This document shows, one piece after another, positions 7,890 to 33,872 of a DNA stretch of 64,000 bases; position 1 is the stretch's first letter; each line of letters begins with the position of its first letter. A program made the position numbers and the translations under genes. The DNA lies in NCBI GenBank assembly GCA_963422735.1, contig OY730476.1, positions 3,392,001 to 3,456,000 of the forward strand, read 5' to 3'. This stretch comes from Candidatus Latescibacterota bacterium. Lineage in GTDB: Bacteria; Latescibacterota; UBA2968; UBA8231. The notes under the pieces are model-generated. The model searched no databases. It was not told the origin of the DNA and was given only the letters and a program-made list of their open reading frames with translations.

Positions 7890-7920
7890 CAGTTTTCAGA
7901 CACAAGGGAAATTCAGGGGT

Positions 7921-8670
7921 ATGAACGTTCAAACGCTGCTAACGGTTCGGGCCGCCCGCTACCGGGCGGTCCAAGACCGAGCGGGCGTCTGTTTGCGCTG
8001 CCTAGACCCGGATGCGGCCGCAGTCGACACGGCGACTACGGTCGAGACCGGCACCGACGGTGCGCTAACGGTCCGCGTACAAGGGCCCTTAGACGACTGG
8101 TGGGGCTTTGATGTGCGCAAGTTGATACGTCAGTTGGATGAGGCTGGCCCTACGTCCATCCATCTGCTGATCGAATCGCCCGGCGGCTTCCTAGCGGACG
8201 GACTGGCACTCTACACCGATCTGCGCGGCCGCGCTCGTGACGACGTTACGGTGACCGCCGAGGCGCGCGGCGTGGTAGCGTCGGCCGCGGTGTTGCCGTT
8301 TCTGGCCGCCGACGAGCGTACGATGGCGACCGGCACGATGCTGATGGTGCATGAGCCTTGGTCGTACTTGGGCCTGTTGGGTTCCGCCGACAAAATCGAA
8401 ACCGACGTAGCAAGGGCCCTCCAGGGCCTGCGCGCCAGCGAACAATCCTTGCGCGACGTACTGACCCAGCGCACGGACCAGCCGCGTCCGAAGGTCAGCG
8501 GCTGGCTCAAGTCTGAGACGTGGTTCTCGCCCGAGGAGGCTATCGCGGCCGGCTTAGCCACCGCGGCTATCGAGGAAGAAGTAGAACTAGAAAAAGACCA
8601 GCAGGCTCGCGCCCTGGCGCGTCGCGTCATGGCGTCGTTTCGCCTTCAGTTACAAACGGAGACCCTCTGA
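7921..8670 (+). CDS. ClpP-type prohead maturation protease
   Basis: IESPGG, GVVASAA, LMVHEPW, ETWFSPEEA motifs; lies between portal and capsid. Confidence 0.9.
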   Translation: MNVQTLLTVRAARYRAVQDRAGVCLRCLDPDAAAVDTATTVETGTDGALTVRVQGPLDDWWGFDVRKLIRQLDEAGPTSIHLLIESPGGFLADGLALYTDLRGRARDDVTVTAEARGVVASAAVLPFLAADERTMATGTMLMVHEPWSYLGLLGSADKIETDVARALQGLRASEQSLRDVLTQRTDQPRPKVSGWLKSETWFSPEEAIAAGLATAAIEEEVELEKDQQARALARRVMASFRLQLQTETL

Positions 8671-10049: not shown

Positions 10050-10061
10050 GAGAGGAATCGC

Positions 10062-10643
10062 ATGGCGAAGATGGCCACGGACCTCGTCTCCATTGATCGG
10101 CTCAAGCAGGAGCTGCGCCTAGGCGGGGCCACTGCAGAAAGCCGGGCGGCCTTCCAAGAGCACGACGCGCTTTTAGCAGCCCAGATTGACGCGGCGGTGT
10201 CCTTTGTCGCCCGCGAGATCGACGCACCGTTGGTGGAGACGACCCAGACACTCTATGTGCAACCGGCCACCGGGCAGCACCCGCTCGTCTTCGACGTACG
10301 CGCCCTCAAGCGCGTCTCGCGTTTCCAATACTGGTCGCTATCGGGTGCGTTGCGCCAAGCCCCCGACGGCTCCATTCGAGTTCAGGACTTAGGCCGGCTG
10401 GTGTTGGCCGGGTTTCGGGGCGGCTCGCACGGGCTCTACCCGCCCGCCACCGGCTGGCCGGCCGTGCGAGCCGGCTCGCTTTTTCGCTTGGAGGTCGCAC
10501 GCGGCTTGGAGATGACCGAACAGACGATGGCCCTCCGACAGGCCATCGTCTTGTGTGTGCGGCAACTGTACGACGGCTACGGGGAGATACGCCCCACGGC
10601 GGCGTTTTACGCACTCATTCAACCCTGGCGGGTGTATGGCTAG
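10062..10643 (+). CDS. head-tail connector (gp6-like)
   Basis: Follows the capsid; LKQELRL..DALL..IDAA and ALRQAIVL..LYD..ALIQPWR pattern. Confidence 0.75.
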   Translation: MAKMATDLVSIDRLKQELRLGGATAESRAAFQEHDALLAAQIDAAVSFVAREIDAPLVETTQTLYVQPATGQHPLVFDVRALKRVSRFQYWSLSGALRQAPDGSIRVQDLGRLVLAGFRGGSHGLYPPATGWPAVRAGSLFRLEVARGLEMTEQTMALRQAIVLCVRQLYDGYGEIRPTAAFYALIQPWRVYG

Positions 10644-10675
10644 GGGAGGGTGCTCTGCACCCTAGGAGATTTCTT

Positions 10676-11209
10676 ATGAATTTTGAGAAGGCTTTCGAGC
10701 GCACCATGCAGTTAGAGGGTGGCTATGTCCTCCACGAGGTGGCAGGCGATAGCGGCGGCCAAACGTATGCCGGCATCGCCCGCAACGCTTGGCCGGACTT
10801 GCCGCTGTGGCAGCAGACCGAGCGGTTGACGAAGGCACCCGACGAGGACATCGTCGCCTTCGTCCAGACGTTCTATCGACAGCAATTCTGGACAAAGATG
10901 CGGCTGGACGAAGTCGAGGCCGAATGCGCTTTTTGCATCTACGATTTTGGCGTCAATTCGGGCACCCGGCAGGCGATACGGACCGCCCAGCGCGTAGCCC
11001 TACCCGATCAACCCACCGAGCACGACGGGCTGGTGGGACCGAAGACGATCGCGGCGATCAATCAGATGGCTCCGGCCGCCTTTATCGCAAAATACCTATT
11101 GAGTCGTGCGCAGTTTTTTGCGGCGATCACGGTGAAGCGACCGGGGAACCTGAAATTCCTCAACGGCTGGCTCAACCGCATACAAACCTGCATGAACTAT
11201 GCGGCGTGA
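10676..11209 (+). CDS. endolysin, glycoside hydrolase family 108
   Basis: EGGY..DSGGQTYAGI, DFGVNSG, DGLVGPKT, FLNGWLNR. Confidence 0.9.
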   Translation: MNFEKAFERTMQLEGGYVLHEVAGDSGGQTYAGIARNAWPDLPLWQQTERLTKAPDEDIVAFVQTFYRQQFWTKMRLDEVEAECAFCIYDFGVNSGTRQAIRTAQRVALPDQPTEHDGLVGPKTIAAINQMAPAAFIAKYLLSRAQFFAAITVKRPGNLKFLNGWLNRIQTCMNYAA

Positions 11210-11562
11210 TGGACCAGCTCCACATTGGTATCCTCTTCGTCGCCGGCCAAGTGCTGTCGATCTTGTCGGCGACCTACTCGCAAGACGCGAAAACAGATCG
11301 GCGGATTACTCCACTGGAGGTGATGTGGTACGGCCCGGAAAAATGGCGCTTTCTGGCCACGGTGTGTTTTCTTGGGGCCATTGCCCTGTTTGCGCCCGCC
11401 GACTGGTATCAACTGTTGCTAGATGTCTCGTACCAAGGGCTGCCCGTCGGGCAGTTCGGCCTGATCGGGTTTAGCTATGTGGCCGATGACGTGTTGTTCA
11501 AGCTCGACCGCATTTGGCGGCGGCATCTCGGGCCGTGGATGAAAAATGGCGCACGCCCCTGA
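11209..11562 (+). CDS. putative holin
   Basis: 117 aa, about three hydrophobic segments, basic C-terminus, overlaps the endolysin stop. Confidence 0.55.
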   Translation: MDQLHIGILFVAGQVLSILSATYSQDAKTDRRITPLEVMWYGPEKWRFLATVCFLGAIALFAPADWYQLLLDVSYQGLPVGQFGLIGFSYVADDVLFKLDRIWRRHLGPWMKNGARP

Positions 11563-11947
11563 GGGGACGTGCAAAAGCGGAGGACAGACCGTGGAAGGCA
11601 ATCGCCCGATCGTGCTGCGGCGACCCGTGTCGCCCGCCTATGATAAGGCGGGGCGGCTGGTGGCCCAAGCCCCAGCGGAGGCTACGGCCTACGCTCGGGT
11701 GTACGATCGCGGCGGCCACGAATTCTACCGCAACCACGCCGTCGGGGCCGAATGGGACCGTCGGTTCGTCCTACGGCGCGACGGCCTAGAGGCCCTCAGC
11801 AACGACTGGCATCTCGTGTACGAGGGGCAGGTCTATGACATTGTTTCCGTCGCGGCGATAGACCGCGATCGCCGCTGGCAGATTGATGCGGTGTATTCGA
11901 CGCTCGAGCACTCCGCCGAAGGCGGTAAAAAAACGATTGAACCGTGA
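11546..11947 (+). CDS. head closure / head-tail adaptor protein
   Basis: LVYEGQVYDIVSV motif and position. Confidence 0.7.
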   Translation: MAHAPEGTCKSGGQTVEGNRPIVLRRPVSPAYDKAGRLVAQAPAEATAYARVYDRGGHEFYRNHAVGAEWDRRFVLRRDGLEALSNDWHLVYEGQVYDIVSVAAIDRDRRWQIDAVYSTLEHSAEGGKKTIEP

Positions 11948-12342
11948 GTAATCGGGAGGCCATCAATGAACTACTGCGTTGTTGCGCCGAGGGGTTGGGC
12001 AACGGCAACGGATTCGATTTGGTGGTAGAGCGCGGCACGGAAACCACTTCGTTGCCGTATGGCATCTTCTGGCATGTGGCTACGTCCGAATATGAGATGT
12101 GGAGCGGGACTATTCCGCTGGAGCATACGTTTGCAGTGACAATTTACGACAAGGACCAAAAGCAGATGCGGACCAGGGACGACCTCTTGCAACAGGCGCT
12201 GGTTACAAGCCCGGCCTTTGTCCGATCGGTCTTTGTCCGCGAGGAAGTCGATGTGGACCCCGAAGGGCCCATCAAAAACGTCCATATACTGGAGCGCCAC
12301 TACGTATTCAAAGCCCGTGGGGAGGTGTGCGTTGACGCCTGA
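11944..12342 (+). CDS. tail completion/terminator protein (putative)
   Basis: Size, LPYGIF motif and position among connector genes. Confidence 0.5.
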   Translation: MSNREAINELLRCCAEGLGNGNGFDLVVERGTETTSLPYGIFWHVATSEYEMWSGTIPLEHTFAVTIYDKDQKQMRTRDDLLQQALVTSPAFVRSVFVREEVDVDPEGPIKNVHILERHYVFKARGEVCVDA

Positions 12343-12814
12343 TATCGAGTCGTTGGGGCTCCTACAAGCCCAAGAGATCATGGAGAGCCTGCCGGCGGAC
12401 CTGGTGGAAAAGGCCTATGCGCGGCCGGCCGTAGCCGTCGAACGCGAAATCGCCAAACGGCTGCGGCGCTCTACCGCCTATCGGGATAAGTCGGGCACCT
12501 TGCGCAAAAACTGGAGGGCGCGACAGACGCCCAAGCGCTACCGGGGGGTACGGGGTGAAGCCAACCAGGTGCAGCTAGCTCAACTACAAGCGGCTCCGCA
12601 TGTCCACTTGTTGGAACGGGGCACGGCCCCGCGGCGCACAAAGCGCGGGCGGCATACAGGTCGGGTCGTCCCGCGCAGGTTTATCGAGCGGGCACTCAAG
12701 CAGATCGCCCCGCGTACGGTGCCGATCTATACGTCGTACTTAAACGGCCCGCAAGGGCTTAGCAAAGTGGTTCGTGAGGCCGCAAAACGTCGACCGCGCC
12801 GCGATCGACTATAA
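12332..12814 (+). CDS. HK97 gp10-like neck protein
   Basis: SGTLRKN, HLLERGT, RRFIERAL; GGGGAGG before TTG at 12332. Confidence 0.75.
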   Translation: MTPDIESLGLLQAQEIMESLPADLVEKAYARPAVAVEREIAKRLRRSTAYRDKSGTLRKNWRARQTPKRYRGVRGEANQVQLAQLQAAPHVHLLERGTAPRRTKRGRHTGRVVPRRFIERALKQIAPRTVPIYTSYLNGPQGLSKVVREAAKRRPRRDRL

Positions 12815-12828
12815 CTAGGAGAAATGCT

Positions 12829-13500
12829 ATGGCTATTAAAAATGTCGCCGGGTTGACCTTTCGCGACGCTAGGCTGGAGATAGGTCTCAATGGGTCAAAA
12901 ACAGACTTCAAGGAGCTGGGCGGCATCAGTGGCTTCCAGTATTCAGGATCCGAGGCGGGGGTGCAAACCTTTCGTCACTGGAACGGGAAGATTGAACATT
13001 TAGACGACCCAGAGATCGGGGATGTGGTACTAACGGCTCCGTGGCTGGCGCATATGCCGATCTGGAAGGACCTGTATGCCGCACGAGCAGACCGCACACT
13101 CCGCACAGTCCAACTCACCACAAAAAAGGAGACGCTGTTTACGGCAGGGCAGAGTCTGAGTCTGAGCATTTCCTCGACGGGAGTAGTCACGTTAAAAGAT
13201 AGCGGCCCGTCCCTCGAGCAGATGCCATATGGGTCTGTCCTCAAGGTAGTCAAGGACAGCGGCTTTGAGTATTTGCCGGTTATCGGAGTTAAAGAGGCGA
13301 AGCCTGTCGTACATCTAGGTGAAGCATCGTCCGGCTCGAGGACGGTCTCTTCGGTGGAGGTGCCTGCCGTCCGAATAGGCCCCTTCGAGGCGAGGTGCCG
13401 GACGATCAGCGGCCCGACCGAAACGGATGGAATGCTGATCGCTGAAATCACGCTACGGCCCATTAAGGCACTGGGTGCCCCGACGATGGTGAGTGCTTGA
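12829..13500 (+). CDS. major tail tube protein (putative)
   Basis: Strong RBS, beta-rich 223 aa, lies before the chaperones and tape measure. Confidence 0.6.
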   Translation: MAIKNVAGLTFRDARLEIGLNGSKTDFKELGGISGFQYSGSEAGVQTFRHWNGKIEHLDDPEIGDVVLTAPWLAHMPIWKDLYAARADRTLRTVQLTTKKETLFTAGQSLSLSISSTGVVTLKDSGPSLEQMPYGSVLKVVKDSGFEYLPVIGVKEAKPVVHLGEASSGSRTVSSVEVPAVRIGPFEARCRTISGPTETDGMLIAEITLRPIKALGAPTMVSA

Positions 13501-13515
13501 TAAAAGGAGGTCCGT

Positions 13516-13977
13516 ATGCCGGCCAGAGATTTATTGGGGCGTCCGGTGGCACCTTTTGTGTCGGACGACCCGCCCTGTACCATCCCGTTGCAAGTGCCCA
13601 AGTTCGGCACTATAGCCCCCACGCTGAAACGCTTGGCGAGCCATTCGCAAAAAGCCATGGTGCTCTTGCGGGGCCGCGATGTCGAGCTCGAAGAACTCGA
13701 AGATATTCACGTTGAGCTGGTCCGCTGTTGCTTGACCGAGGGGATGGATACCGACGAGACGTTTGAGATGCTCGTGGCACTGGGCGTCAACCTAAGCGAC
13801 AGTGTGCATCCGCTGCTGAAGCGATGCTACGCGCTGTGTGGCCTCAAATCGAGCGAGCTGTCCGAGGAGGAACTCCAAGAGATGGCCGCTAAAATGCAAG
13901 GCAAGCTGCTCGACCAAGAAATCACCGATCAGGCCTTCCTCGACCCTACCTCTGGGCGTGCCGCGAATACGGGGTAA
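13516..13977 (+). CDS. tail assembly chaperone (gpG-like)
   Basis: AGGAGG RBS, acidic helical protein between tube and tape measure. Confidence 0.65.
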   Translation: MPARDLLGRPVAPFVSDDPPCTIPLQVPKFGTIAPTLKRLASHSQKAMVLLRGRDVELEELEDIHVELVRCCLTEGMDTDETFEMLVALGVNLSDSVHPLLKRCYALCGLKSSELSEEELQEMAAKMQGKLLDQEITDQAFLDPTSGRAANTG

Positions 13978-14234
13978 CGCTCTCGGCCCTGTACGAGTTG
14001 TCGGCTGTTGAGGTCGCCTGTTATGTAGAGCATCTGATATCCTATCCTCCTATGGCCAAGAAGATGCCGGAGTTGGTGGCGTTCCACGCGCTCAATTACA
14101 TACAGGCCAATTCTAAAAAAGAGGCCCGACTGCCGAGCATGAGCGATCTACTCGAATGGTATGAGGCGGAAGCGGCGGTGGAAACCGATGTGGTGATCAA
14201 CGCCCGCTTGGCGGCCATGGCCCAGGAAGGCTGA
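13893..14234 (+). CDS. tail chaperone gpT-like segment in the -1 frame
   Basis: -1 frame open from 13893 and overlapping the gpG end; reads LWACREYGVTLSALYELSAVE; no clear RBS/ATG. Confidence 0.55.
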   Translation, partial: NARQAARPRNHRSGLPRPYLWACREYGVTLSALYELSAVEVACYVEHLISYPPMAKKMPELVAFHALNYIQANSKKEARLPSMSDLLEWYEAEAAVETDVVINARLAAMAQEG

Positions 14235-14235
14235 C

Positions 14236-17031
14236 GTGGTGGCCCGTCCGTCCATCGTAACCGATTTCAAAGCCCAAAACGCCCAGTTTCTGCAAGCAGC
14301 CCGGCAGAACACGCAAGCGTTGGAGCGGCTGCGTAAACAGATGCGCCGCACCCAACAGCAAGGGCGCACGATGGGCGAGACCCTCCAGCAAGGGCTGACG
14401 TCCTTGGTCGCCGTCACGTTCGCGGCCACCGCCGGCTTTGCCGCGTTAATCCAGAAAACGACGCAATCGGCCAACGACATACTAACGCTGTCGCGGGCCA
14501 CCTCCATGACGGTGGAGGGTATCCAAGACATGGTGGCCGCTTTCGCCACCGTGGGCATAGCGGCCGAGGATGCGCACGACTTCATTCAGACCTTCACCGA
14601 AAGCATCGGCGAGGCCCAACAAGAGCTAGACCGCAAAGGGGTCAGTACGCGCGAACAGGCCCTGTTCGACTTAGGGTTCTCCGAAGAAGACATTCGTACA
14701 TCTCAAGACAACCTCGACGCCTTTATCGACGACGCCATCCGTAGGCTCCAAGAGCTGCCGGAAACAAAGGCCCAGTTTGTCTTGGGCGAACTGGGCTTGC
14801 CCGACCAAGCGCGCCGCTCGCTCGCGCTTCAACTAGACGACGGCCAGACGGTACGAGAACGGGGCCGCAGCCTCGTAGGCGAGGATTTTTCCAAAGAAGA
14901 GCTCGCTCGCCTAGACACGCTGTTTGGCGAGTTGACCGTTTCTGCCGAGCGCTTAGATCGGGCTCTGAAACGGTTCGTCCTCAACAACGAAGACCGGATA
15001 CGGCGCATGATCTCCACCTACGAGCGCGTCGCGCCGAAGCTGATAGACGCCTTCGCTTCGTTGGCCGACGCCGCGCTGAACACCACAGAGAAGCTGTTGG
15101 ATTTTTTGAATGCGCTCGGCACGAAGAAAGATGAAAAGGGACAAAGCCAATTGACCGGCGAAGATGTCGTGGGCCTGTTGTCCCTTGCGGTAAGCGGCCG
15201 AATGGCGGGCAAGCTCGTGCGATCGGGCCGAGAGGCGGCAGGCAAGCTCGTGCGATCGGGTGCCGGTCAGCGCACAAGAGAGGCAGAAAAGAAGCTGTCT
15301 GATAGGCTCCCGAAGCATGCTCAACAGTTCTCCCGGCTAGTGCATTCCTTTTTCAGGCCGCTGGCCACGGCTGGGAAAAAGCTCTTAGGCCCTCTTTCTA
15401 GGATCGTTGCGCCTCTTCTAAGAATCGTTGCGCCTTTTACTTTGCTGACCCCGGTGATCAAAGCACTAGGAGGGGCCCTCCTTGCCTTGCTAGGAGGGCT
15501 AGTAGGGATAAAAGCGGCGATTGTCGCGGTGGGGACGATAGGTATAGCGGCGGTGGCAGATGAACTTTTCTTCGATGGTGCCGCCCGGAAGTATCTGAGG
15601 CGAAAAATCGCCGGTTTTTGGAACGACCTGTTCGGGGAGGCGGCCGAGGAAGAAAAGAAGCCAACAAAGAAGCCAACAAAGAAGAAAGAACTTCCGCCGT
15701 GGGAAGGTGCACCCGAACCGCGCGACTACACGCTCGACCCGCCGCGGAAGCGCGATCCATTCCGTCAGTTCCTCATTGACCAGCAGAGGGACCTCTACGC
15801 GGAGATCAAGCAGTTGGAGCGATTCGCCGAGGCCGCACAAAAAGCGGCTGAAGGCGACGAGCAGGCTCTCAAGTTTTTTAAGTCCCAACAAGAGCGCAGC
15901 CTAATGACCTTGCAGGCGGCGACGCGCCAAGCGAGCCGCGACATCGAATTCGAGCAATTGTCCGAAGTGGTAAAGGAGCGGAATGACCAGATCATAAAAG
16001 ACCTAGAGAAACAGATCGTCGAAGCCGATCGACTTGCCGAGTTCGCCGACGACCCGACGCTCAAGAATCTGAAAAGGCGACTCGCCTTGGCGCAAAAGCA
16101 GGCGGCAACCGATCAGGTACTACAAGAGACGGAGTACTTGCAGGACAAGTCTTTTGTCGAGGTCCTGATTAAAAACCAAAAGGCGGACCTCGCCCTACAG
16201 CTAGCAAGGCAAAAGAGACTCAGCGAGCTGCAGGACGATCCCGAATATCTGAAGTTGGTCGATCAGATAGCCCAAGCAGCGTCGGAGAGCCAGCTATCGC
16301 AACTAGAAAACCAGCTCCGGGTGTTTAACAACGCCGACTCAGTGCGCAAGCGCAGGCTGACGGCCTTGGCACAATTGGATTTGCAAATAGCCCAAGCCGA
16401 GGACGCCTTGAAGCAGTTGCCCTCCACTCGTGAGCACCGGCGCAGCCTAGAACAGATACAAGCGGCACACCAGCTCGCGCTGACGCAGGAACAGATAGCC
16501 AACTTTGCCGCTGGAGCGGAAGGGCGCCATGCACAGCGGACGGCCCAAGTCCAACTCGATTTTTTGCAGCGGGCCGAACAGGCCCAATGGCAGCTAAATC
16601 ATCTGCATCTCGATTACTTTGATATCGCACGAAGTGGCTTGTTCGATCTAGTCACGGGGGCCAAGTCGCTGAAGCAGACGGCCCTATCGTTCATCGAGCG
16701 GCTCTATCAGAAAACGACCGAACGCTTCCTCGATGCGACCCTGAACCAACTCTTTGCGGCCCGTAGTGGTTCGCCTAAGCCGAATCCATGGCTGTACCAC
16801 CAGTCTTCGTCCCCCGGGCAGCTCCGAGTAGCGGCAAAGCCGGTCGTCGAAGCCGGAGCCGAGCCGCTCGCGGTCCATATTGATGCACGCGGCGGCGATG
16901 CCGCGTCCGTCCACCGGGCGATCGACCAAGCAATTCCGGCTATCGCCGCCGCCACCGAGCAGCTCCAACTCGAACGAATGAGCACCGATCCGCAGGCGAC
17001 GCGGCGTTGGAGGCAGGGTATGCAGGGTTGA
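14236..17031 (+). CDS. tail tape measure protein
   Basis: 931 aa, Ala/Leu/Gln-rich helical protein with a central hydrophobic segment; canonical position. Confidence 0.85.
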   Translation: MVARPSIVTDFKAQNAQFLQAARQNTQALERLRKQMRRTQQQGRTMGETLQQGLTSLVAVTFAATAGFAALIQKTTQSANDILTLSRATSMTVEGIQDMVAAFATVGIAAEDAHDFIQTFTESIGEAQQELDRKGVSTREQALFDLGFSEEDIRTSQDNLDAFIDDAIRRLQELPETKAQFVLGELGLPDQARRSLALQLDDGQTVRERGRSLVGEDFSKEELARLDTLFGELTVSAERLDRALKRFVLNNEDRIRRMISTYERVAPKLIDAFASLADAALNTTEKLLDFLNALGTKKDEKGQSQLTGEDVVGLLSLAVSGRMAGKLVRSGREAAGKLVRSGAGQRTREAEKKLSDRLPKHAQQFSRLVHSFFRPLATAGKKLLGPLSRIVAPLLRIVAPFTLLTPVIKALGGALLALLGGLVGIKAAIVAVGTIGIAAVADELFFDGAARKYLRRKIAGFWNDLFGEAAEEEKKPTKKPTKKKELPPWEGAPEPRDYTLDPPRKRDPFRQFLIDQQRDLYAEIKQLERFAEAAQKAAEGDEQALKFFKSQQERSLMTLQAATRQASRDIEFEQLSEVVKERNDQIIKDLEKQIVEADRLAEFADDPTLKNLKRRLALAQKQAATDQVLQETEYLQDKSFVEVLIKNQKADLALQLARQKRLSELQDDPEYLKLVDQIAQAASESQLSQLENQLRVFNNADSVRKRRLTALAQLDLQIAQAEDALKQLPSTREHRRSLEQIQAAHQLALTQEQIANFAAGAEGRHAQRTAQVQLDFLQRAEQAQWQLNHLHLDYFDIARSGLFDLVTGAKSLKQTALSFIERLYQKTTERFLDATLNQLFAARSGSPKPNPWLYHQSSSPGQLRVAAKPVVEAGAEPLAVHIDARGGDAASVHRAIDQAIPAIAAATEQLQLERMSTDPQATRRWRQGMQG

Positions 17032-17033
17032 TC

Positions 17034-17654
17034 ATGGGCGATACCGGCATCCTCTTTCCTGAGCCGACGTACCTGCGCTCCTTTTCCCCGCCGGTGCTGG
17101 CGCCCATCGAACAGGTCGTGCATCGGTCTAAGTGGACCGGTCGCACCTTCGTGTACACGTACGCCGCGGTGTGGTCGGGCAAGGTCTGGCTGCGCCGATT
17201 TAGCGTCCAGCAAGAAGCGGCCACCGACCGCTTCAATCCGGTCTTATTCAACATGCTCGTCGGCCAACAGAATACCTTTGACCTGCAATTGCCTCTGCCG
17301 ACCCTCCCCCTGCGCAGCAGGGGCACAGCGACCTATGCGCTGGATGCCGCCAGCCAAACGCTGCGGTGGACACCCCAGAATAAGAGGGACCTAAACGGTA
17401 CGTTGGTAGGCCAATTCTGCTCCATCGGCGGACGCGTATATCAGGTGTGGAAAACACAGGAGACCGCCGCCTATCTGATACCGGACACCATCCCTCCGGC
17501 GGACGCCGTACCCCAGTCGCTGAAGCCGTCGGCGTCCGCCGAGGCACGGCTGCGGGCGCACATAACCTCGCACACGATGGGCCAAAATGACTACAACGAA
17601 CTGGAGGGGCCCTTCACCTTTACTTGGGAGGAGGTGCTCCAGCCCCCGGAGTGA
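17034..17654 (+). CDS. distal tail protein (putative)
   Basis: First gene after the tape measure; ends FTFTWEEV. Confidence 0.5.
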   Translation: MGDTGILFPEPTYLRSFSPPVLAPIEQVVHRSKWTGRTFVYTYAAVWSGKVWLRRFSVQQEAATDRFNPVLFNMLVGQQNTFDLQLPLPTLPLRSRGTATYALDAASQTLRWTPQNKRDLNGTLVGQFCSIGGRVYQVWKTQETAAYLIPDTIPPADAVPQSLKPSASAEARLRAHITSHTMGQNDYNELEGPFTFTWEEVLQPPE

Positions 17655-17659
17655 TTGCT

Positions 17660-18154
17660 ATGGCCAGAGAGTATATTCTGCTGGAGATTGATGCGCCCGA
17701 CGACCCGCTGCGCTACTGGTCTGGCGACGAGGATAGCGACTTGGCCGATGGGTTGCTATCTGAGGGGGAAGGCCCCTATACGGCTGTGGAGGTGCTCAAC
17801 GTCGAGCCCCTAGCAACCACGCGAAGCAATGCGATGCCGACACTGACGGTGCACCTGTGCTTGCAACCGACGGACGCCGGCTATGAAGTGCTCCGCACCG
17901 CCGAGCAGGCCCTCGACGGCTTGGTGCGCCTGACCGACGATCGGACGCTCCAAACCGAACACTGGCGCTTCTGGGGCCGCACCCGCCGGCGGAGCCTACA
18001 GGCGGGCTTGTTTACGTTGGAGCTGGTGCATGTTGCGGCGAGGTTTCTCGAAGATGACCCGAACCCGGCCGTATGGAATGCCGAGCGCGACAAGGGGTTT
18101 GAGTTCTTGCAAGCGACCGCTGAGCGCTTAGACGCGACGACGTGGCCAGACTAA
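17660..18154 (+). CDS. minor tail protein (putative)
   Basis: LLEIDAPDDPLRYWSG and DKGFEFL motifs; position. Confidence 0.5.
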   Translation: MAREYILLEIDAPDDPLRYWSGDEDSDLADGLLSEGEGPYTAVEVLNVEPLATTRSNAMPTLTVHLCLQPTDAGYEVLRTAEQALDGLVRLTDDRTLQTEHWRFWGRTRRRSLQAGLFTLELVHVAARFLEDDPNPAVWNAERDKGFEFLQATAERLDATTWPD

Positions 18155-18170
18155 CGAGCGAAGGGGCGAA

Positions 18171-18959
18171 ATGACCTCACGCATCACAAGAGGCGAGCTG
18201 GCGGCGGCCGGCTTCCAAGCCGGCCAGGCATGGCTCACTAAGGCCTCCCTTTTGGGCCTTAGCACCCCGTGGACGGCCGCTGGTGTGGCCGGCATCAGCC
18301 TGCTGCATGCCTTCTTCAACAATCCCAAACCCACCGTAGCCTTAGACGATGGCCAGCAGTCGCCCGACAAGGCGCAGACCTATCCCGACGAGCCGCCCTT
18401 CGCCCAATGGGCCATCGGCCCTGCGCTGGTCGGCGGAGCCATCGTCTATGCCCACATCAACCGCTTCAAGGGGCCAAACGATAAGAAGCGGCGCAAGGTG
18501 CTGCATCTGGCTATTGCGCTGACCGAAGGCAGCCTGCCAGAGCCTGACATCCTATACGTCTGGATCAATGGACGGCGAACGGAGTATGAACGACAGGAAA
18601 CTTCGGACGGCCACCTGAATCCGGATGGGACGACCACCGACTGGTATGAGCCGGTATCGGACGATTCCGGTGCGAGAGTGTTTGTGGGATATGGGGACGA
18701 TAGTAATGGTGAGTGGAAGTTTACATCGATATGGCCCCTAAAAAATGAGTATTGGTCTCCCCGCGCCGGCGATATCCACATAAGCCCCCGAAAGTCCGTT
18801 CAAGATAAAGATAACTTCGTCCTTCGGGTCGTCAGTCGGTTCATCAAAAAAACCGATGGTGCTATGGAGTTAAAGACCATTAAAGAGGTCTACTTTAACC
18901 CCCTAGAGGTCAGTGTTATGCACTCAAGCACAACCACGGCAGCTACGCGCTCAAGATAA
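18171..18959 (+). CDS. tail tip (J-like) protein N-terminal part, apparently truncated
   Basis: Hydrophobic Gly/Ala N-terminus, [24 protein letters not shown]; only 262 aa. Confidence 0.6.
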
Positions 18960-19582
18960 ACGCCGCTACCGACCACAACCATGCGGCCTACGCATCCAAA
19001 AGCCACAACCACAGCGGCTTCACTTCTTGGGCGACCTTTGCGGCCCATAAGCACGACGCCACCTACGCCGCCAAGAGCCACCGCCATAGCCACGCCCATA
19101 GCTCTGAGCAGTGGTTTGCTCAGCACAACCACTCGGCCTACGCGCTCAAAAGCCACAACCACAGCGGCTTCACTTCTTGGGCGACCTTTGCGGCCCATAA
19201 GCACGACGCCACCTACGCCGCCAAGAGCCACCGCCATAGCCACGCCCATAGCTCTGAGCAGTGGTTTGTTCAGCACGGCCACACCGCCTACGCACCCAAG
19301 AGCCATAGCCATCCAACCCTCAAGGGCGACAAGGGAGACAAAGGGGACAAGGGCGATCAAGGACTGCGCGGCTACCGGGGCTTCAAAGGTGACAAGGGCG
19401 ACAAGGGCGACAAGGGCGACAAGGGCGACAAGGGCGACAAAGGCGATAGGGGAGCGCCCGGCGTCCAGCATTCGCATCCGTATGCTCACTATAGCCATGG
19501 CCATGGTTCGCACGGCCATTCAGGGTTCGTTGTCATTAACGGCGTACATTACTCAGTCGCTATTAGTAGCAGTTCCGTATAG
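18899..19582 (+). CDS. start-less His-rich/collagen-like tail fibre frame
   Basis: 227 open codons (stop TAA 18896-18898 to TAG 19580-19582): YAxKxHxH repeats then (GDK)n collagen triplets; missing from the ORF track because it has no start codon. Confidence 0.75.
18997..19276. repeat. 150-bp-period tandem duplication in the fibre frame
   Basis: 18997-19126 recurs almost exactly at 19147-19276. Confidence 0.9.
19322..19445 (+). repeat. 9-bp AAGGGCGAC tandem repeats (collagen Gly-Asp-Lys)
   Basis: Directly visible microsatellite. Confidence 0.9.
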
Positions 19583-19621
19583 TCAACTATCTCAACGTTT
19601 ACCCCCAGAAGGGAGACGACC

Positions 19622-19918
19622 ATGTCTCAACCTATTCAGCAACGACTGCAAGGGGCACTGACTCAACAAAACGAGTTAGTCCAAACTTGGACGAACTATA
19701 TCCAAGAGAAAGAGGAGGAGGCGGACTTTTGGACTAAGGAGGCCGCCGCGGCCAAAGACACCAACCCGCAGAAAGCCGAATGTTTCACCTGCTGTGCGAA
19801 GAACGCACGGGAGGAGGTCGAGCGCGGCCAGCTCGAAAGGCAAGCCCTCCTCGATACGACCACCCCCTTGCAAACCGCGCTGGACGAACTGGCCACCGCG
19901 AAGGAGCCGGCCGAATGA
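19622..19918 (+). CDS. hypothetical coiled-coil protein with CFTCC motif
   Basis: GGGAGA RBS, ATG, 98 aa helical hairpin-like composition. Confidence 0.65.
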   Translation: MSQPIQQRLQGALTQQNELVQTWTNYIQEKEEEADFWTKEAAAAKDTNPQKAECFTCCAKNAREEVERGQLERQALLDTTTPLQTALDELATAKEPAE

Positions 19919-20118
19919 GTGGCGGAAGTTGGGAGTATCAGTATCAGGCAGTGCGCAGGCTCGGTGAACAGTTGACCGAAGAAGGCGACCCCTTGCGCCG
20001 GGCCTTGGGCGAGCACTTGTTGGTCTGTGCCGAAGCCTGTCGGCTCATTGAGTGGTCCGACTCCGGCGACAGCCCCCCGGACGGATGGCGAGAGGCCGTC
20101 GAGGAGATTGTACAATGA
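19915..20118 (+). CDS. small phage hypothetical protein (MSGGSxxY N-terminus)
   Basis: AAGGAG RBS, ATGA overlap with the previous gene. Confidence 0.65.
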   Translation: MSGGSWEYQYQAVRRLGEQLTEEGDPLRRALGEHLLVCAEACRLIEWSDSGDSPPDGWREAVEEIVQ

Positions 20119-20432
20119 ACCCGAATGACAAAGAGCAAATCGTCGCCGTCGCCGCAACGTTGGGCGCGGCCACAACCCCTCAAGAGGAGGCCGATGCCCT
20201 CGAAAGCCTCCAGGGCTTGCTCGGCCAGCAGGGCGACGACGACGCGCTGGATCAGCTTCACCAGCACCTGAGCGGACTCTACCACAACCTTGAGCACCAA
20301 TGCGAGGCGACGCGCAAAGAGCTCGGCCCGATTGGGCTGATTATCGGCTTGGAGCGTCTGTCGGCGCAGTGCGAGATCCTCAAGCCGATCGTAGCGCAAT
20401 TAGATACGCTGCGACCGAAACCCTCATCCTAA
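20115..20432 (+). CDS. hypothetical helical phage protein
   Basis: GAGGAG RBS, ATGA overlap. Confidence 0.6.
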   Translation: MNPNDKEQIVAVAATLGAATTPQEEADALESLQGLLGQQGDDDALDQLHQHLSGLYHNLEHQCEATRKELGPIGLIIGLERLSAQCEILKPIVAQLDTLRPKPSS

Positions 20433-20611: not shown

Positions 20612-22948
20612 TTACGGACACCAAGATAGCCCTAGGTCGTTTAAGTCGTGCGACGGTATATCTTGCAACGCTTCTGGGATGCACCCCGTCAACTCGTTGC
20701 TGTTAAGGAATAGCCATTCTAGGTTTTGGAGTTGGCCTAGCTCCGCCGGGATCGAACCCGTCAACCCGTTGTAGCTAAGGTCTAGCCATTCTAGGTTTGG
20801 GAGTTGGCCTAGCTCCGCCGGGATCGAACCCGTCAACTCGTTGCCGTTAAGGAATAGCCATCCCAGGTTTGGGAGTTGGCCTAGCTCCGCCGGGATCGAA
20901 CCCGTCAACTCGTTGCTGTTAAGGAATAGCCATTCTAGGTTTTGGAGTTGGCCTAGCTCCGCCGGGATCGAACCCGTCAACCCGTTGTCTTCAAGGTCTA
21001 GCCATTCTAGGTTTGGGAGTTGGCCTAGCTCCGCCGGGATCGAACCCGTCAACCCGTTGCCGTTAAGGTCTAGCCGTTGCAGGTGTTGGAGTTGGCCTAG
21101 CTCCGCCGGGATCGAACCCGTCAACCCGTTGTCTTCAAGGTCTAGCCATTCTAGGTTTGGGAGTTGGCCTAGCTCCGCCGGGATCGAACCCGTCAACCCG
21201 TTGCCGTTAAGGTCTAGCCGTTGCAGGTGTTGGAGTTGGCCTAGCTCCGCCGGGATCGAACCCGTCAACTCGTTGCCGTTAAGGGATAGCCATCCCAGGT
21301 TTGGGAGTTGGCCTAGCTCCGCCGGGATCGAACCCGTCAACCCGTTGCCGTTAAGGTCTAGCGCTCCCAGGTTTTGGAGTTGGCCTAGCTCCGCCGGGAT
21401 CGAACCCGTCAACCCGTTGCCGTTAAGGTCTAGCGCTCCCAGGTTTTGGAGTTGGCCTAGCTCCGCCGGGATCGAACCCGTCAACTCGTTGCTGTTAAGG
21501 GATAGCCATTCTAGGTTTTGGAGTTGGCCTAGCTCCGCCGGGATCGAACCCGTCAACTCGTTGCTGTTAAGGAATAGCCATTCTAGGTTTTGGAGTTGGC
21601 CTAGCTCCGCCGGGATCGAACCCGTCAACTCGTTGCTGTTAAGGAATAGCCATTCTAGGTTTTGGAGTTGGCCTAGCTCCGCCGGGATCGAACCCGTCAA
21701 CCCGTTGACGCCAAGGGATAGCCGTTGCAGGTTTTGGAGTTGGCCTAGCTCCGCCGGGATCGAACCCGTCAACCCGTTGTCTTCAAGGTCTAGCCATTCT
21801 AGGTTTTGGAGTTGGCCTAGCTCCGCCGGGATCGAACCCGTCAACCCGTTGTCGAAGAGGGATAGGGTATCGACTCGCCCTTCGTCATCCGTAGTAACGC
21901 CATGCCATTGCTCAAGCGGTTCTGTGCTGAGCCAGTTGGTGTCGTTATTCCAGTTAGGGCCGCCGGTAGCCCAATAGAGCGCGACCAACACCGCCCGATC
22001 GGCAGCGGCAGCGGGACCTGTCAGCGGCAGCCCGATCCCCGCCGGCAGGGACGGATCGGACGGATCAACCACATAGGTGGCAATCAGATAGGCGTCGGTG
22101 AAATCAATCGCGTCATCGCCGTTCACATCGCCGAACCAGAGGTCGGGAACAGCCGCCGCCGGGTTAACGCTGTATATCGCCAGCATCAGCGCATCAACTA
22201 TATCTACCCGACCGTTGCCGTCCACATCGCCTAACAGCCCGCTGCTGAGCCGCTTTCCGCGTGGCAGCCGATCCGCCGCGTCCACGACCCACTCCACCGG
22301 AGCCATCCCCGTCCGCCACCGAAAGCTCGCGTCCACATACGGCACCAAGCCCGCACCGGCCACGGCCACGCCATACGTCCGCTCCACCGCTACCGGAGCC
22401 GGTGGCGGCGCCGCCCCCAAAGCCGCCGGAATCCCGGCCTGCCCATCGACCAGCACCATCCGCCCACTCGCGGCCAGCCCGCCGCTGCTGAGCCGATAGA
22501 GGTACACCCCGGCACCCACCGCACGACCGGCCGCATCCGTGCCGTCCCAACGTGCGGTGTGCGCTCCGGCCGGCTGGTGGGCATCCACTAACGAAGCCAC
22601 CTGTTGCCCCAGCAGGTTAAACACCTCTAGCCGTACGTAGCCCGCCGCCGGCAGTTGGTAGGGAATCCTCGTCGAAGGGTTAAATGGGTTCGGGTAATTC
22701 GGCCCCAGCACCAAGCCGTCCGGCGGCGCAGAGCCTGCGGACAAGGACGGCAACGACAGCGCGAAATGGCCGGCCTCGTCGGTGGTGGCCCCCACGGAGC
22801 GGCGCAGATCGGATAGGTCGAACAGCCGCACGTGGGCGGCCACCACCGGCTCGCCCGAAGGAAGGCGTACCCACCCTTCAACCAGCGGTTCGGCCAAGAC
22901 CCGAGCCGACAATGACAGCCCGACAAAAATGGCAAATAATACGTTCAT
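20612..22948 (-). CDS. secreted eukaryote-like LRR protein (signal peptide, Ig-like, FlgD-Ig, dockerin-like pair, LRR N-cap, 17 plant-type LRRs)
   Basis: GAGGGGAG RBS then ATG at 22948; NYPNPFNPST..WDG..GVYLYRL; GDVDGNGRVDIVD/GDVNGDDAIDFTD; LxxLxLxxNxLTGSIPAELGQL repeats. Confidence 0.92.
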   Translation of the reverse strand: MNVLFAIFVGLSLSARVLAEPLVEGWVRLPSGEPVVAAHVRLFDLSDLRRSVGATTDEAGHFALSLPSLSAGSAPPDGLVLGPNYPNPFNPSTRIPYQLPAAGYVRLEVFNLLGQQVASLVDAHQPAGAHTARWDGTDAAGRAVGAGVYLYRLSSGGLAASGRMVLVDGQAGIPAALGAAPPPAPVAVERTYGVAVAGAGLVPYVDASFRWRTGMAPVEWVVDAADRLPRGKRLSSGLLGDVDGNGRVDIVDALMLAIYSVNPAAAVPDLWFGDVNGDDAIDFTDAYLIATYVVDPSDPSLPAGIGLPLTGPAAAADRAVLVALYWATGGPNWNNDTNWLSTEPLEQWHGVTTDDEGRVDTLSLFDNGLTGSIPAELGQLQNLEWLDLEDNGLTGSIPAELGQLQNLQRLSLGVNGLTGSIPAELGQLQNLEWLFLNSNELTGSIPAELGQLQNLEWLFLNSNELTGSIPAELGQLQNLEWLSLNSNELTGSIPAELGQLQNLGALDLNGNGLTGSIPAELGQLQNLGALDLNGNGLTGSIPAELGQLPNLGWLSLNGNELTGSIPAELGQLQHLQRLDLNGNGLTGSIPAELGQLPNLEWLDLEDNGLTGSIPAELGQLQHLQRLDLNGNGLTGSIPAELGQLPNLEWLDLEDNGLTGSIPAELGQLQNLEWLFLNSNELTGSIPAELGQLPNLGWLFLNGNELTGSIPAELGQLPNLEWLDLSYNGLTGSIPAELGQLQNLEWLFLNSNELTGCIPEALQDIPSHDLNDLGLSWCP
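20728..21845. repeat. 72-bp-period coding tandem array (16 copies of an invariant 38-bp core)
   Basis: GGAGTTGGCCTAGCTCCGCCGGGATCGAACCCGTCAAC recurs every 72 bp from 20728 to 21808. Confidence 0.95.
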
Positions 22949-23041
22949 AGTTTCAATCCGCTCCCCTCGCCCAAGTGAGGGGAGACAACACAAACGATAC
23001 AAAAAACGCCGACATGGAAACATCACTAATAGAGACATAGC

Positions 23042-25598: not shown

Positions 25599-26087
25599 TC
25601 AGTCCTTTTCAACACGGGCCGCATCACAGCCAATGGTCGGGGTGTCCTCAGTGCTCAGGGGGTCTTCGGCCGCACCGTTAGACGAGGCCGAATCACCGCT
25701 TCTGGCTTCCAACAACTGCTGCATCATCTGCTTTAGCTCCTCAACCTCGTCCTTTTTTTTCTCCTCCTGACGCACTGAGGCGGCGTGGAATTCCTTGAAC
25801 TGCTTCAATAAGTCCATCGCCCAAGCCGGGGGTTCTTCGCTGTCACCAGCCGGTTTGGGCTCCGCTCGAATTGCTTGTTCGGTGCTGCGTTGTGGCCCGA
25901 CGTAGAATTCCAAGCCGAGAGCAGATGCGACTTCAGCGGCACGCTCTATAGACGGAATGTGCCCCTCTAAAATTCCTTGGACACTGCGAGTTGGTAGACC
26001 AGCACGGGCTGCGGCAGCCCGTGCTGAGAGATTTTCTTGGACTAGCCGATCTCGAATTGCCTTAACGAAATCATCATAGATCTCCAT
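25599..26087 (-). CDS. CI-like prophage repressor (HTH, no S24 peptidase domain)
   Basis: SARAAAARAGL..SVQGILEGHIPSIERAAEVASALGLEFYVG; divergent from the cro-like gene. Confidence 0.75.
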   Translation of the reverse strand: MEIYDDFVKAIRDRLVQENLSARAAAARAGLPTRSVQGILEGHIPSIERAAEVASALGLEFYVGPQRSTEQAIRAEPKPAGDSEEPPAWAMDLLKQFKEFHAASVRQEEKKKDEVEELKQMMQQLLEARSGDSASSNGAAEDPLSTEDTPTIGCDAARVEKD

Positions 26088-26182
26088 GGAGGCAAAATAT
26101 AGCACACATAGAAAGGCCTGTCATGTGAAAATAATCTCACAAACTACTTGATTTTGTGATTAATATAGCATAAATTAGCTAT
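26088..26182. promoter_or_regulatory. cI/cro divergent promoters and operators
   Basis: Plus strand TTGATT-17-TAAATT (26148-26176); minus strand ATGACA-17-TATATT (26124-26096); palindrome TGTGA-N8-TCACA at 26124-26141 with degenerate copies at 26089-26106 and 26155-26172. Confidence 0.7.
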
Positions 26183-32225: not shown

Positions 32226-32429
32226 ATGAGCGAACTAACGAATGAAAAACTGATGTCGGTCGCCGAAGTGGCCGACTATCTGGCTGCGCCGGCGCGCACG
32301 GTGCGCTACTGGGCGCAAAAGAAGATATTGCCCGCCCTGCAACTGCCTAATGGTCAGTACCGTTTTCGACGCCGCGACCTCGACCGGTTCCTATACCGTT
32401 GCCGCATCCCACCCCCCTCCTCTCAGTAG
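32226..32429 (+). CDS. excisionase-like HTH_17 protein
   Basis: LMSVAEVADYL..TVRYW..LPA..GQYRFRRRDLDRF; converges on the integrase. Confidence 0.85.
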   Translation: MSELTNEKLMSVAEVADYLAAPARTVRYWAQKKILPALQLPNGQYRFRRRDLDRFLYRCRIPPPSSQ

Positions 32430-33634
32430 GCCAACGCGTCGGTCGGATGGGCTTCAGGCTGGAGCGCATGGAGGTAGTGCAGCGTAGTATCTAGGCGCGA
32501 ATGCCCCATCCGCGCCATGACCGTGGCCGGATCGACCCCAGCCCGCAACAGCATCGTCGCATACGTGTGCCGAAGCGAGTAGATCGTTATCGACGCATCC
32601 AAGCCCTCTTGCTCGATCATATGCACAAACGGACGACGCAGGCTACTAAACGACAGCGGACGGCCTCGATACTGGGGTTGTCGCCTACTACCCGCCACCA
32701 GCACAAAAGGCCCCAAAAGCCCCGCCTTGCTCTGCCGGTGATGCTCCTGTTGCCAAAATTCAACGAAGGGTGCTTTCACGTCGAGTACGCGCAACTCGGC
32801 ATCTTTAGGCGTCCACCGCTGCCCCGTCGGCGATACCGCCGCCTGCACGGAGAGCACCCGGCGCTCCACGTCCAACCACTGCCACTGACACCAGCACATC
32901 TCCTCGTTTCTCAGGCCGGCATACAACCCCAACCGCACCACCATCGGCAGTGCCCCACTCAGAGGTCGGGTGTAGTGCAAGGAGGCCTTGAGCAGATGGT
33001 TGACCTCCTCCAAGCTGAGGATGCGCCGCGGCACGGTCCGCCGCGGGGTAGGCACGGATACCCGACGAGCCGGGTTTTCTCCCAGCATGCCTAACCGTAC
33101 CGCTTGGTCCAAAAGCAGCCGCAGCTTCGTCAGCTTGTGATGTACCGTCCAAGGCGAGTAGCGTTGGCCCTGCCCCTCCAGCCAAGTAGCCAGATCCGCC
33201 TCGGTCATATCTAAGCGCGGATGGGCTTCCTGCAGCCAGCCTAGGACGCAGTCGGCCAGCCCCATGTGATTGCGATGGCTTTTGCGGGTGGCATCGCCGG
33301 CTTTGGAGTGAGTCAGCGCGTAGTTTTCGTAGGCGGCTCGAAGCGTGGTAAAATCTACGGCCTGCCTCGTCGCCGGTCCGCCCGCCGTCTGCCAAGCAAT
33401 GAAGGTTAAGGCCGCCTCTTCTCTTTTTAGCCAGCCCCGGCCAATCCATTCGGTAATCTGGTCAGCGGAGGCCACCCCTGTGCGCGTGGCCTCTTCCAGC
33501 CGCTCCAACTGGCGCTTGAGAAAGCCGGCGGCTTGGCGGCTTTTCAGGTAGCGAGAGCGGTACTTTTTTTCGTCCGGCAGGGCAACCGAATAGCTGACCC
33601 GCCAGTAGGAACCTGTCTTTTTGACCGAGGCCAT
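32423..33634 (-). CDS. tyrosine recombinase (phage integrase)
   Basis: AGLRNEE, TPK, YSLRHTYAT, MGHS..TT.HY; adjacent to att/tRNA. Confidence 0.95.
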   Translation of the reverse strand: MASVKKTGSYWRVSYSVALPDEKKYRSRYLKSRQAAGFLKRQLERLEEATRTGVASADQITEWIGRGWLKREEAALTFIAWQTAGGPATRQAVDFTTLRAAYENYALTHSKAGDATRKSHRNHMGLADCVLGWLQEAHPRLDMTEADLATWLEGQGQRYSPWTVHHKLTKLRLLLDQAVRLGMLGENPARRVSVPTPRRTVPRRILSLEEVNHLLKASLHYTRPLSGALPMVVRLGLYAGLRNEEMCWCQWQWLDVERRVLSVQAAVSPTGQRWTPKDAELRVLDVKAPFVEFWQQEHHRQSKAGLLGPFVLVAGSRRQPQYRGRPLSFSSLRRPFVHMIEQEGLDASITIYSLRHTYATMLLRAGVDPATVMARMGHSRLDTTLHYLHALQPEAHPTDALAY

Positions 33635-33791
33635 TCTGCCTCCGAAAAAGTTGCCACAAGATTATCACAAGAAAAAGGCTCGCGTAGCTGCCTTAACGCT
33701 ACTATGACTGCCCTTATTGCCGCAACTGCCGATTGGAGAGAAGATAGGGTGCGGTGAGGTGAATCACAAGGAAAAACAAGGAGATAGAAGA

Positions 33792-33815
33792 AAGCCCCTG
33801 AAAAATCAGGGGCTT
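33792..33815 (-). terminator. phage-supplied terminator hairpin downstream of tRNA-Val
   Basis: Same stem as 2654-2677 with the loop inverted and a shorter U-tract. Confidence 0.65.
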
Positions 33816-33872
33816 AGAAGATGGTGGGCGATACTAGACTTGAACTAGTGACCTCCTGCATGTCAAGCAGGC
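33806..33872. repeat. right prophage att site
   Basis: Identical to 2668-2734. Confidence 0.96.

Follow-up and report, generated by a model that had tools for sequence, protein, structure and literature searches.

Eukaryote-like proteins carried by phages have been documented so far mainly for ankyrin. Jahn et al. (10.1101/608950) describe ANKp as a eukaryote-like repeat protein that is encoded by a phage, carries an N-terminal signal peptide, and lacks a membrane anchor. In their view, it is secreted by the symbiont, whether infected or lysogenic, and acts on the interaction between bacterium and eukaryote. Robbins et al. (PMC8163846) report that eukaryote-like repeat proteins are enriched in sponge symbionts, and that most sponge-symbiont genomes encode them, whereas genomes with the usual secretion systems are few. 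Here, a protein with plant-type leucine-rich repeats (LRRs), encoded inside a prophage bounded by attachment (att) repeats, is described. The prophage lies in a 64,000-nt stretch of the genome of Candidatus Latescibacterota bacterium (GCA_963422735.1; contig OY730476.1, positions 3,392,001 to 3,456,000). This stretch is called the window, and coordinates refer to it unless a genome position is indicated. The LRR gene, called the cargo gene below, is probably a complete gene of an exported, modular protein family specific to the lineage, acquired by a temperate tailed phage as accessory cargo (a "moron").

The cargo protein resembles ANKp in being phage-borne, in having eukaryote-like repeats and an N-terminal signal peptide, and in lacking a membrane anchor. 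Unlike ANKp, it contains LRRs (no ankyrin family is found with Pfam), and it is 778 aa long with a leader of ~310 aa, compared with an ANKp gene of 568 nt. It also differs from the ankyphages, for which the same authors report ANK on 418 IMG/VR contigs (10.1101/608950), in being a single case known from integrated prophage sequence alone.

LRR arrays are likewise present on phage records: phrog_6688, the "leucine rich repeat protein" of the Leptospira phage LE1 type, and a protein of IMG/VR contig L266. As found here, these proteins have neither signal peptide nor leader module, unlike the cargo protein. The ectodomains of plant receptor kinases (MIK2, GSO1, FLS2, and PXY/TDR) share the 24-residue repeat class and the N-terminal cap (N-cap), whereas the cargo protein has no transmembrane helix, kinase, or N-cap cysteine pairs, and its repeats are nearly identical to one another. 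The Xanthomonas type III effectors XopAE, XopAC/AvrAC, and XopL contain plant-type LRRs as well and are the best NCBIfam matches. Their cut-offs are not reached (229 of 600, 187 of 450, and 127 of 500 bits, respectively), the LRRs alone match, and the cargo protein has a Sec signal instead of the type III signal of these effectors. The type A cargo domain of the type IX secretion system (T9SS; TIGR04183) is of the same domain family as that of the cargo protein, but here this sorting domain occupies residues 76-167 of 778 and is not C-terminal. With the type I dockerins of cellulosomes, the cargo protein shares the duplicated Ca-binding loop-helix, although it has no carbohydrate-active domain and its cohesin partner is uncertain. 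The literature search yielded no paper on phage LRR cargo or on the leader module; the annotation supplements of the ankyphage work may list other repeat types.

Architecture of the Cargo Protein

The minus-strand open reading frame (ORF) at 20612..23038 encodes 808 aa from its first ATG. The ATG at 22948, which gives 778 aa, agrees with the N-termini of 17 aligned homologues. The first ~310 residues constitute a conserved leader module. It consists, in this order, of a signal peptide, an Ig-like piece, a T9SS-type sorting domain, a small beta domain, a dockerin, and the LPxGIG junction.

The signal peptide was read by eye, with hydrophobic residues 3-14 and a putative VLA/EP cleavage site, and the structural model gives a helix at residues 2-12. 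The hydrophobic stretch and A-E-P-L are kept in 18 aligned homologues. The Ig-like piece (residues 23-67) has four strands in the model, with a predicted local distance difference test (pLDDT) value of about 90. In the sorting-type domain, FlgD_ig (Pfam PF13860) matches residues 101-154 (30.5 bits, cut-off 27), and the NCBIfam T9SS type A sorting domain, TIGR04183, matches residues 85-165 (28.2 bits, cut-off 23). Four aspartates of the dockerin (D241, D252, D274, and D285) are invariant in alignments of 18 and 66 sequences. In the junction, L301, P302, G304, I305, and G306 are all invariant among the 18 sequences; among the 66, G306 is invariant and the other four are kept at 90% or more. The AlphaFold model (pLDDT 75.8) contains the signal helix, the four-strand sandwich, a six-strand sandwich at residues 93-166, a disordered linker, a small beta unit, and two dockerin helices. 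Matches of the four-domain model in Foldseek include FlgD, PorU, PorZ, and the C-terminal domain of RgpB; they are per-domain beta-sandwiches with low TM-scores, which agree with the profile-based assignments and add little.

Behind the leader module are the N-cap and the LRR units, which follow the consensus LxxLxLxxNxLxGxIPxxLGxL over 24 residues. We take this array to belong to the class named "plant-specific (24-residue) LRR". The Pfam matches on the LRR block are strong for LRR_1 (1.5e-57) and LRR_8 (1.9e-48), and LRR_1, LRR_8, LRR_4, and LRR_14 together span E-values of 1e-40 to 1e-57. The best sequence matches among solved structures are the plant receptor-kinase ectodomains of MIK2 (1.6e-176), GSO1, FLS2, and PXY/TDR, and these alignments begin at the N-cap (query residues ~344-347). 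The motif LTGSIPAELGQL is invariant in 16 of the 17 units. Differences between units occur only at positions 2, 3, 5, 7, 8, 10, 23, and 24; five of these (2, 3, 5, 7, and 8) are exposed in the LxxLxLxxN strand. At the DNA level, the array is a 72-nt unit repeated 16.2 times with 91% matches, and contains exact two-unit duplications of up to 184 nt.

A first-pass annotation, made from the letters of the window, had listed a signal peptide, an FlgD-Ig-type module, two dockerin-like Ca loops, an N-cap, and 17 LRRs of the 24-aa plant-receptor type. This observation is confirmed because domain, repeat, and structure-database matches support every element: Pfam and NCBIfam for the FlgD-Ig-type module, dockerin, and LRRs, the exact spacing and the plant ectodomain matches for the repeats and N-cap, and inspection by eye for the signal peptide.

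Conservation and Spread of the Leader Module

Residues 1 to ~310 align end to end with the family, with invariant NYPNPFNP..T.IPY, two GD..D loops, and LPxGIG. The module is 54-61% identical to 16 of 17 homologues and 45% identical to the remaining one, in genome G144, with 63 invariant columns. It scores 499 bits against the module profile. In both the 18- and the 66-sequence alignment, conservation ends at DPSDPxLPxGIG, and the sequences differ thereafter.

With residues 1-335 as query, 2,035 of the 8,000 scored candidate proteins match at E<=0.001. In the best 120 of these, 88-100% of the module is matched at 53-63% identity before the sequences diverge. Cargo domains in the best 120, assigned by eye from the Pfam column, are LRR in 12 and ankyrin in about 25; the others include propellers of the LDL-receptor-B/NHL type, CARDB, PD40, and cadherin. 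Of 1.84 billion cluster representatives, 1,984 match the module profile at E<=1e-30. The top 150 are proteins of 330-3,936 aa, and nearly all of them have the start of the module among their first 50 residues. Within the phylum, it is present at E<=1e-50 in 62 of 168 genomes, including 42 of 75 in family f1 and 25 of 30 in genus g1.

A quick tree of 112 modules, with cargo classes assigned by crude motif labels, requires 32 or more changes of class against a possible minimum of 4. We read this as repeated reshuffling of cargo behind a constant leader. The prophage copy and the host paralogue are both on long branches in one starred 11-row clade.

The taxonomy of the module was also approached by a profile scan of contigs. 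This was rejected: only the sorting-domain part (residues ~24-189) matched, and the known close relatives were absent. The metagenome-assembled genomes so matched are mostly labelled as phyla of the FCB group (Zixibacteria, KSB1, Bacteroidota, Calditrichota, Ignavibacteriota, Cloacimonadota, Latescibacterota, Gemmatimonadota, Poribacteria, and others). The best score in the protein atlas is 0.80 and gives leads only; some viral-labelled clusters there have Por_Secre_tail with cohesin.

Chromosomal Relatives and Host Copies

The relatives of the cargo gene are chromosomal. The five closest LRR homologues (46-57% identity) lie amid dehydrogenases, cysteinyl-tRNA synthetase, and other metabolic or housekeeping genes, and the other 33 prophage proteins of the window have no match in the five 40-kb neighbourhoods of these homologues. 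A chromosomal gene of 701 aa in G144 has the same architecture as the cargo gene: module, LRR array, and the C-terminal cap LTGCIPxALQDIP. Two other genomes (G133 and G134) have LRR homologues in tandem with family members of 2,400-3,000 aa. TerL_ATPase genes occur in 4 of the 76 genomes of the family, and five complete congeners, which have 9-12 or more module genes, contain neither TerL_ATPase nor HK97 capsid; both models do recognise the TerL and capsid of the window, and the terminase search in relatives covered TerL_ATPase but not the Terminase_3, Terminase_6, and GpA families.

The first-pass annotation had proposed that the N-terminal module is a host-lineage surface-protein scaffold captured by the phage. 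The host-lineage origin stands, as the module has a 55%-identical paralogue in the chromosome and hundreds of relatives in related genomes. The suggestion that the phage equipped a bare scaffold does not, as the full architecture is already chromosomal in G144. Module, array, and cap being combined in a chromosome, the phage would therefore have taken a complete family gene. The base composition (GC fraction 0.609 in the cargo gene, 0.615 in the prophage, and 0.595 in the genome) gives no sign of foreign origin.

The host has two intact copies of the leader module, one of them on the prophage, plus one decayed remnant. The other intact copy belongs to an 870-aa paralogue (genome 1473087-1475699), in which the module is followed by PD40 repeats and a sulfatase-modifying-type domain. 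The remnant (genome 4342219-4342590) has an in-frame stop inside the signal peptide and is truncated after the IPYQL motif. Relatives have up to at least 12 module genes per genome, versus 2 here. By these counts, the host appears to have lost most of its own family copies.

Some variants of the architecture were also seen. LRR homologues L093/L094 (G132) and L095/L096 (G140) have a lipoprotein-type signal, LLIACGD, and only the rear of the module, from about residue 190. The LRR homologue of G140 sits between two identical 282-aa transposase-like genes. In the host genome, a 1094-aa membrane protein (genome 3540545-3543829) has many predicted helices and four inserted plant-type LRR blocks, every block having an N-cap to itself. 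Apart from the cargo gene, this protein gives the sole long match (38% identity) to the LRR block in the genome; another match, at genome ~4533437-4533559, is 31 aa in length.

Prophage and Gene Surroundings

The prophage is 31 kb long and is bounded at tRNA-Val by direct att repeats of 85 nt, 94% identical (Table 1). With att at a tRNA gene and with integrase, head, tail, and replication genes, it is a tRNA-integrated temperate tailed prophage. The part of the repeats beyond the tRNA (2650-2683 and 33788-33821) is a hairpin with a GC stem, whose loop is TTTTT in one copy and AAAAA in the other. The mismatches between the att copies arise because this loop is inverted. No lysis genes were recognised in the prophage from the PHROG and Pfam assignments.

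Table 1. Positions of the prophage features and of the parts of the cargo gene in the window (res, residues of the 778-aa protein; HTH, helix-turn-helix).
Feature	Position	Strand	Evidence or remark
Left att repeat	2650..2734	.	copy of tRNA-Val 3' part and downstream hairpin
Late operon	3389..20432	+	PHROG and Pfam matches
Late genes: ParB/methylase-like; TerL; portal	3907-4653; 4605-6431; 6332-7672	+	
Late genes, head: protease; HK97-type capsid; head closure	7744-8670; 8520-10049; 11546-11947	+	
Late genes, tail: tape measure (931 aa); tail/fibre genes	14236-17031; to about 19603	+	
Two small ORFs of the late operon	within 3389..20432	+	no assigned function
Cargo gene, leader module and LRR array	20612..22948	-	778 aa
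C-terminal tail HDLNDLGLSWCP and stop codon	20612..20650	-	forms cap with last repeat, common to chromosomal homologues
17 LRR units of 24 aa, res 359-766	20651..21874	-	exact 24-aa spacing
LRR N-terminal cap, res 337-358	21875..21940	-	aligns with plant receptor ectodomain N-caps
Conserved junction DPSDPSLPAGIG, res 296-306	22031..22063	-	homologues diverge after it into different cargo domains
Dockerin type I, two Ca-loop motifs, res 239-293	22070..22234	-	Pfam Dockerin_1 (PF00404) 28.7 bits, cut-off 22.9
T9SS type A sorting/FlgD_ig-type beta-sandwich, res 76-167	22448..22723	-	TIGR04183, PF13860
Ig-like beta-sandwich, CarboxypepD_reg-like, res 23-67	22748..22882	-	Pfam 24.2 bits, below cut-off of 32.3
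Signal peptide, res 1-19	22892..22948	-	putative cleavage after VLA, read by eye
ParE-like toxin; HTH antitoxin-like	23077-23334; 23331-23699	+	Pfam ParE_toxin 26.7 bits; HTH_3/HTH_31
HigA antitoxin	24369-24683	-	TIGR02607 68.3 bits
HigB toxin	24700-24972	-	PF05015 49.1 bits
HTH repressor-like gene	25599..26105	-	Pfam HTH_3; faces early genes
Early genes: RecT-like, ParB-like, helicase	26284-31219	+	PHROG matches
Tyrosine integrase	32423..33634	-	Pfam Phage_integrase 66.7 bits; XerC/XerD-type matches below cut-offs
Right att repeat	33788..33872	.	overlaps intact tRNA-Val(gac) 33822-33898 (-)

The cargo gene runs toward the end of the late operon, in convergent orientation. HigBA, a YHYH-domain gene, and the repressor lie on the same strand as the cargo gene. 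The ParE-like/HTH pair lies between the cargo gene and HigBA on the opposite strand. Such a slot is the usual place for accessory cargo, and as an accessory gene of a prophage that is oriented apart from the late operon, the cargo gene is a moron by position. Its placement had been described in the same way before: inside the att-bounded prophage, antisense to the late operon, and alongside two toxin-antitoxin (TA) pairs.

The arrangement was compared with contigs of sequencing runs. In three runs, which come from three studies and bear three organism labels, independent contigs connect the ParE/HTH pair with the 5' part of the gene; one of these runs may be the source sample. Contigs of the same runs extend on toward the repressor region with few differences. 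Record 9 of run X5 spans 22032-24289, and record 2 of run X1 spans 22713-24289. The stretch 21900-25000 is present in 12 runs of 9 studies. None of the 12 is recorded as RNA; run X7, which is RNA by guess, spans scattered pieces.

Several features elsewhere in the prophage may be recorded. The C-terminal part of a tail fibre (region 18890-19603) is open from 18899 to 19603 but lacks a start codon. Two 150-nt repeats with many HxH motifs are followed in it by 14 collagen-like GDK triplets. At a run of five C (AACCCCCTA), 60 nt of it overlap the end of the ORF 18171-18959. This is either a site of -1 frameshifting or the result of a homopolymer error or a mutation. Two identical 31-nt palindromes (28829-28859 and 29266-29296) are located just before and within the 5' part of the ParB-like gene (28851-29717), and could be candidate binding sites of the ParB-like protein. 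Between the helicase and integrase genes, 31608-31697 consists of two tandem 45-nt repeats that are 91% identical.

Search for Related Phages

Relatives of the window's TerL are found in 4 other genomes among the 168 and in a second prophage of the same genome, all at 49% identity or less. The second prophage (genome 2766296-2778000) is apparently degenerate, and its TerL is 46% identical to that of the window. Two early genes there share about 90% identity with window 26568-27386 and 27393-27842, and its 894-aa tail protein includes a piece of the small coiled-coil protein at window 24067-24357. Two candidates for cargo near these loci were rejected. A module-like match near the terminase of G098 turned out to be an ordinary protein of 332 aa that lies among host genes and has its sorting domain at the C-terminus, and a PD40 match near the second prophage belongs to a peptidase-like gene (1197 aa) of the chromosome, past the end of the prophage.

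IMG/VR scans with the LRR block and with the tail protein 18171-18959 gave no relatives, and a strict DNA repeat pattern gave three stretches there, one of them a real array. L266, a 76-kb IMG/VR contig, encodes a 399-aa protein with about ten plant-type LRRs and without signal peptide or module, which matches phrog_6688. The cargo protein itself matches phrog_6688 at 1.6e-98; that is, LRR proteins exist in phages. Among GenBank phage records, 9 of 50,697 have an LRR match, below 60% identity and at most 53% coverage. Within the phages and loci searched, the prophage LRR cargo is a single case as far as seen.

Proposed Export and Envelope Targeting

We infer that the cargo protein is exported by Sec, that the module targets or retains it at the envelope, and that a ligand would be bound by the concave face of the solenoid. 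Export and envelope targeting are proposed because of the Sec-type N-terminus, the sorting-type domain, the T9SS genes of the host, and the dockerin. In the host T9SS, SprA (611 bits summed) and PorU (632 bits) are above cut-offs; a PorV-like gene beside PorU has 152 bits, below its cut-off of 250. The lipoprotein-type signal in the LRR homologues of two relatives fits an envelope location of the LRR domain. Two host paralogues (749 aa, genome 3516818-3519067; 1760 aa, genome 3600057-3605339) end with a dockerin-like pair, a borderline cohesin-like stretch, and a C-terminal sorting domain. A complex of the host cohesin-like domain with the dockerin was predicted with a score of 0.24, where the mark is 0.32, which is uninformative either way.

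Possible Role and Alternative Explanations

If a complete family gene was acquired as phage cargo, the following steps can be envisaged. The lysogen would export the cargo protein by Sec, and the leader module would bring it to, or retain it at, the cell envelope. The 17-repeat solenoid would bind an external ligand via its concave face, which alone varies between repeats. The lysogen would thereby gain a binding specificity that its reduced genome no longer encodes, with which it would adhere to a eukaryotic host or another cell, or be masked from it, and the phage would benefit from a fitter host. ANKp and the enrichment of repeat proteins in sponge symbionts offer an analogy that makes a role toward a eukaryotic host plausible.

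Several observations count against such an acquisition and role. The first concerns related phages, among which a class of "LRR-phages" analogous to ankyphages had been suggested, with the check that related prophages be inspected by TerL for a eukaryote-like gene at this slot. The five related terminase loci of the phylum have no module, LRR, or ankyrin gene in the regions fetched. The 68 TerL relatives in IMG/VR (at most 42% identical) have no family member within +-10 kb, and none of the 42 IMG/VR loci matched by the module alignment extends beyond the sorting-domain part. The class is therefore not supported by any of these loci, and with no related phage carrying such cargo, the carriage may be a one-off accident.

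The second concerns export. The known position of the T9SS signal is the C-terminus, and in the same genome 72 of 76 sorting-domain matches are C-terminal, with at most 15 residues after the domain. In the cargo protein, 611 residues lie behind it, so an export route beyond Sec is unproven. As candidate docking partners, two proteins of the genome have a cohesin-like stretch directly before a C-terminal sorting domain, but with 24.1 and 23.5 bits (21.3 in a second scan) these stand at or below the cut-off of 24.1.

The remaining points concern expression, assembly, and habitat. A scan for sigma-70-type consensus promoters, which does not cover the promoter type of this lineage, found no promoter on the minus strand just before the start of the cargo gene, and no terminator. 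The support from independent contigs applies to the 5' side of the gene, away from the junction of the LRR array with the late operon. No result speaks to habitat or eukaryotic host; the sole taxon label, shared by three named homologues, is "Gemmatimonadota bacterium".

A more far-reaching proposal, which can be held only tentatively, is that the leader is a lineage-specific delivery system. The Sec signal, a sorting domain moved to the N-terminal side, the dockerin, and LPxGIG would together export or display interchangeable eukaryote-like binding domains, such as LRR, ankyrin, propellers, and cadherin, and the prophage gene would be one plug-in of this system.

It is rather doubtful that the cargo gene is a neutral passenger, picked up by illegitimate recombination or imprecise excision, of no benefit to phage or lysogen, and heading to decay. 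Consistent with it, there is a single instance and no related phage has the gene, and the host is losing the family, with one remnant and 2 copies versus 9-12 or more in congeners. Moreover, the neighbouring tail-fibre frame is interrupted, so the prophage may itself be decaying. However, the 2.3-kb frame is intact, its 24-aa register is exact, and the structural positions are invariant. Near-identical sequence is also present in runs of several studies, and the gene lies in an accessory region, beside two TA pairs and on the repressor strand.

A surface factor serving the phage itself is unlikely. Such a protein would mask or bind the phage's own receptor (superinfection exclusion) or trap competitors, and would not be directed at eukaryotes. 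The site by the tail-fibre genes and the lysogeny region may be typical of exclusion genes, and the product is predicted to be exported and envelope-directed. Nevertheless, this architecture is widespread among genomes that have no such prophage, so the primary role of the family is not phage-related. No homology or experiment ties the protein to exclusion systems, the PADLOC defence library not having been scanned.

That the LRR protein is a virion component, such as a tail or receptor-binding accessory, is very improbable. LRR proteins do occur on phage records (phrog_6688, Leptospira LE1-type phages, and one 399-aa IMG/VR protein), but the cargo gene is transcribed in opposition to the late operon, has a Sec-type signal peptide and a host-type leader module, and its homologues are chromosomal proteins in phage-free genomes. 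Least credible is a misassembly that joined the gene to the prophage across the repeat array: a 1.2-kb array of 72-nt repeats is hard to assemble, but the genome is one 4.95-Mb contig, and in contigs of other runs the TA pair and the repressor region are continuous with the gene's 5' part.

Implications

Acquisition of a complete family gene by the phage indicates the source of the cargo, namely a family native to the host lineage. In this way a phage can hand its host a ready-made binding protein. More promising as a lead is the leader module, of which well over a thousand proteins have a copy. It is a testable candidate for an export or display route, and provides a sequence handle by which such proteins can be found. 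If the leader is indeed a delivery system, a phage could move a binding specificity horizontally into a strain with few copies of its own, and the module would point to the long-sought export route of the eukaryote-like proteins of symbionts in this lineage.

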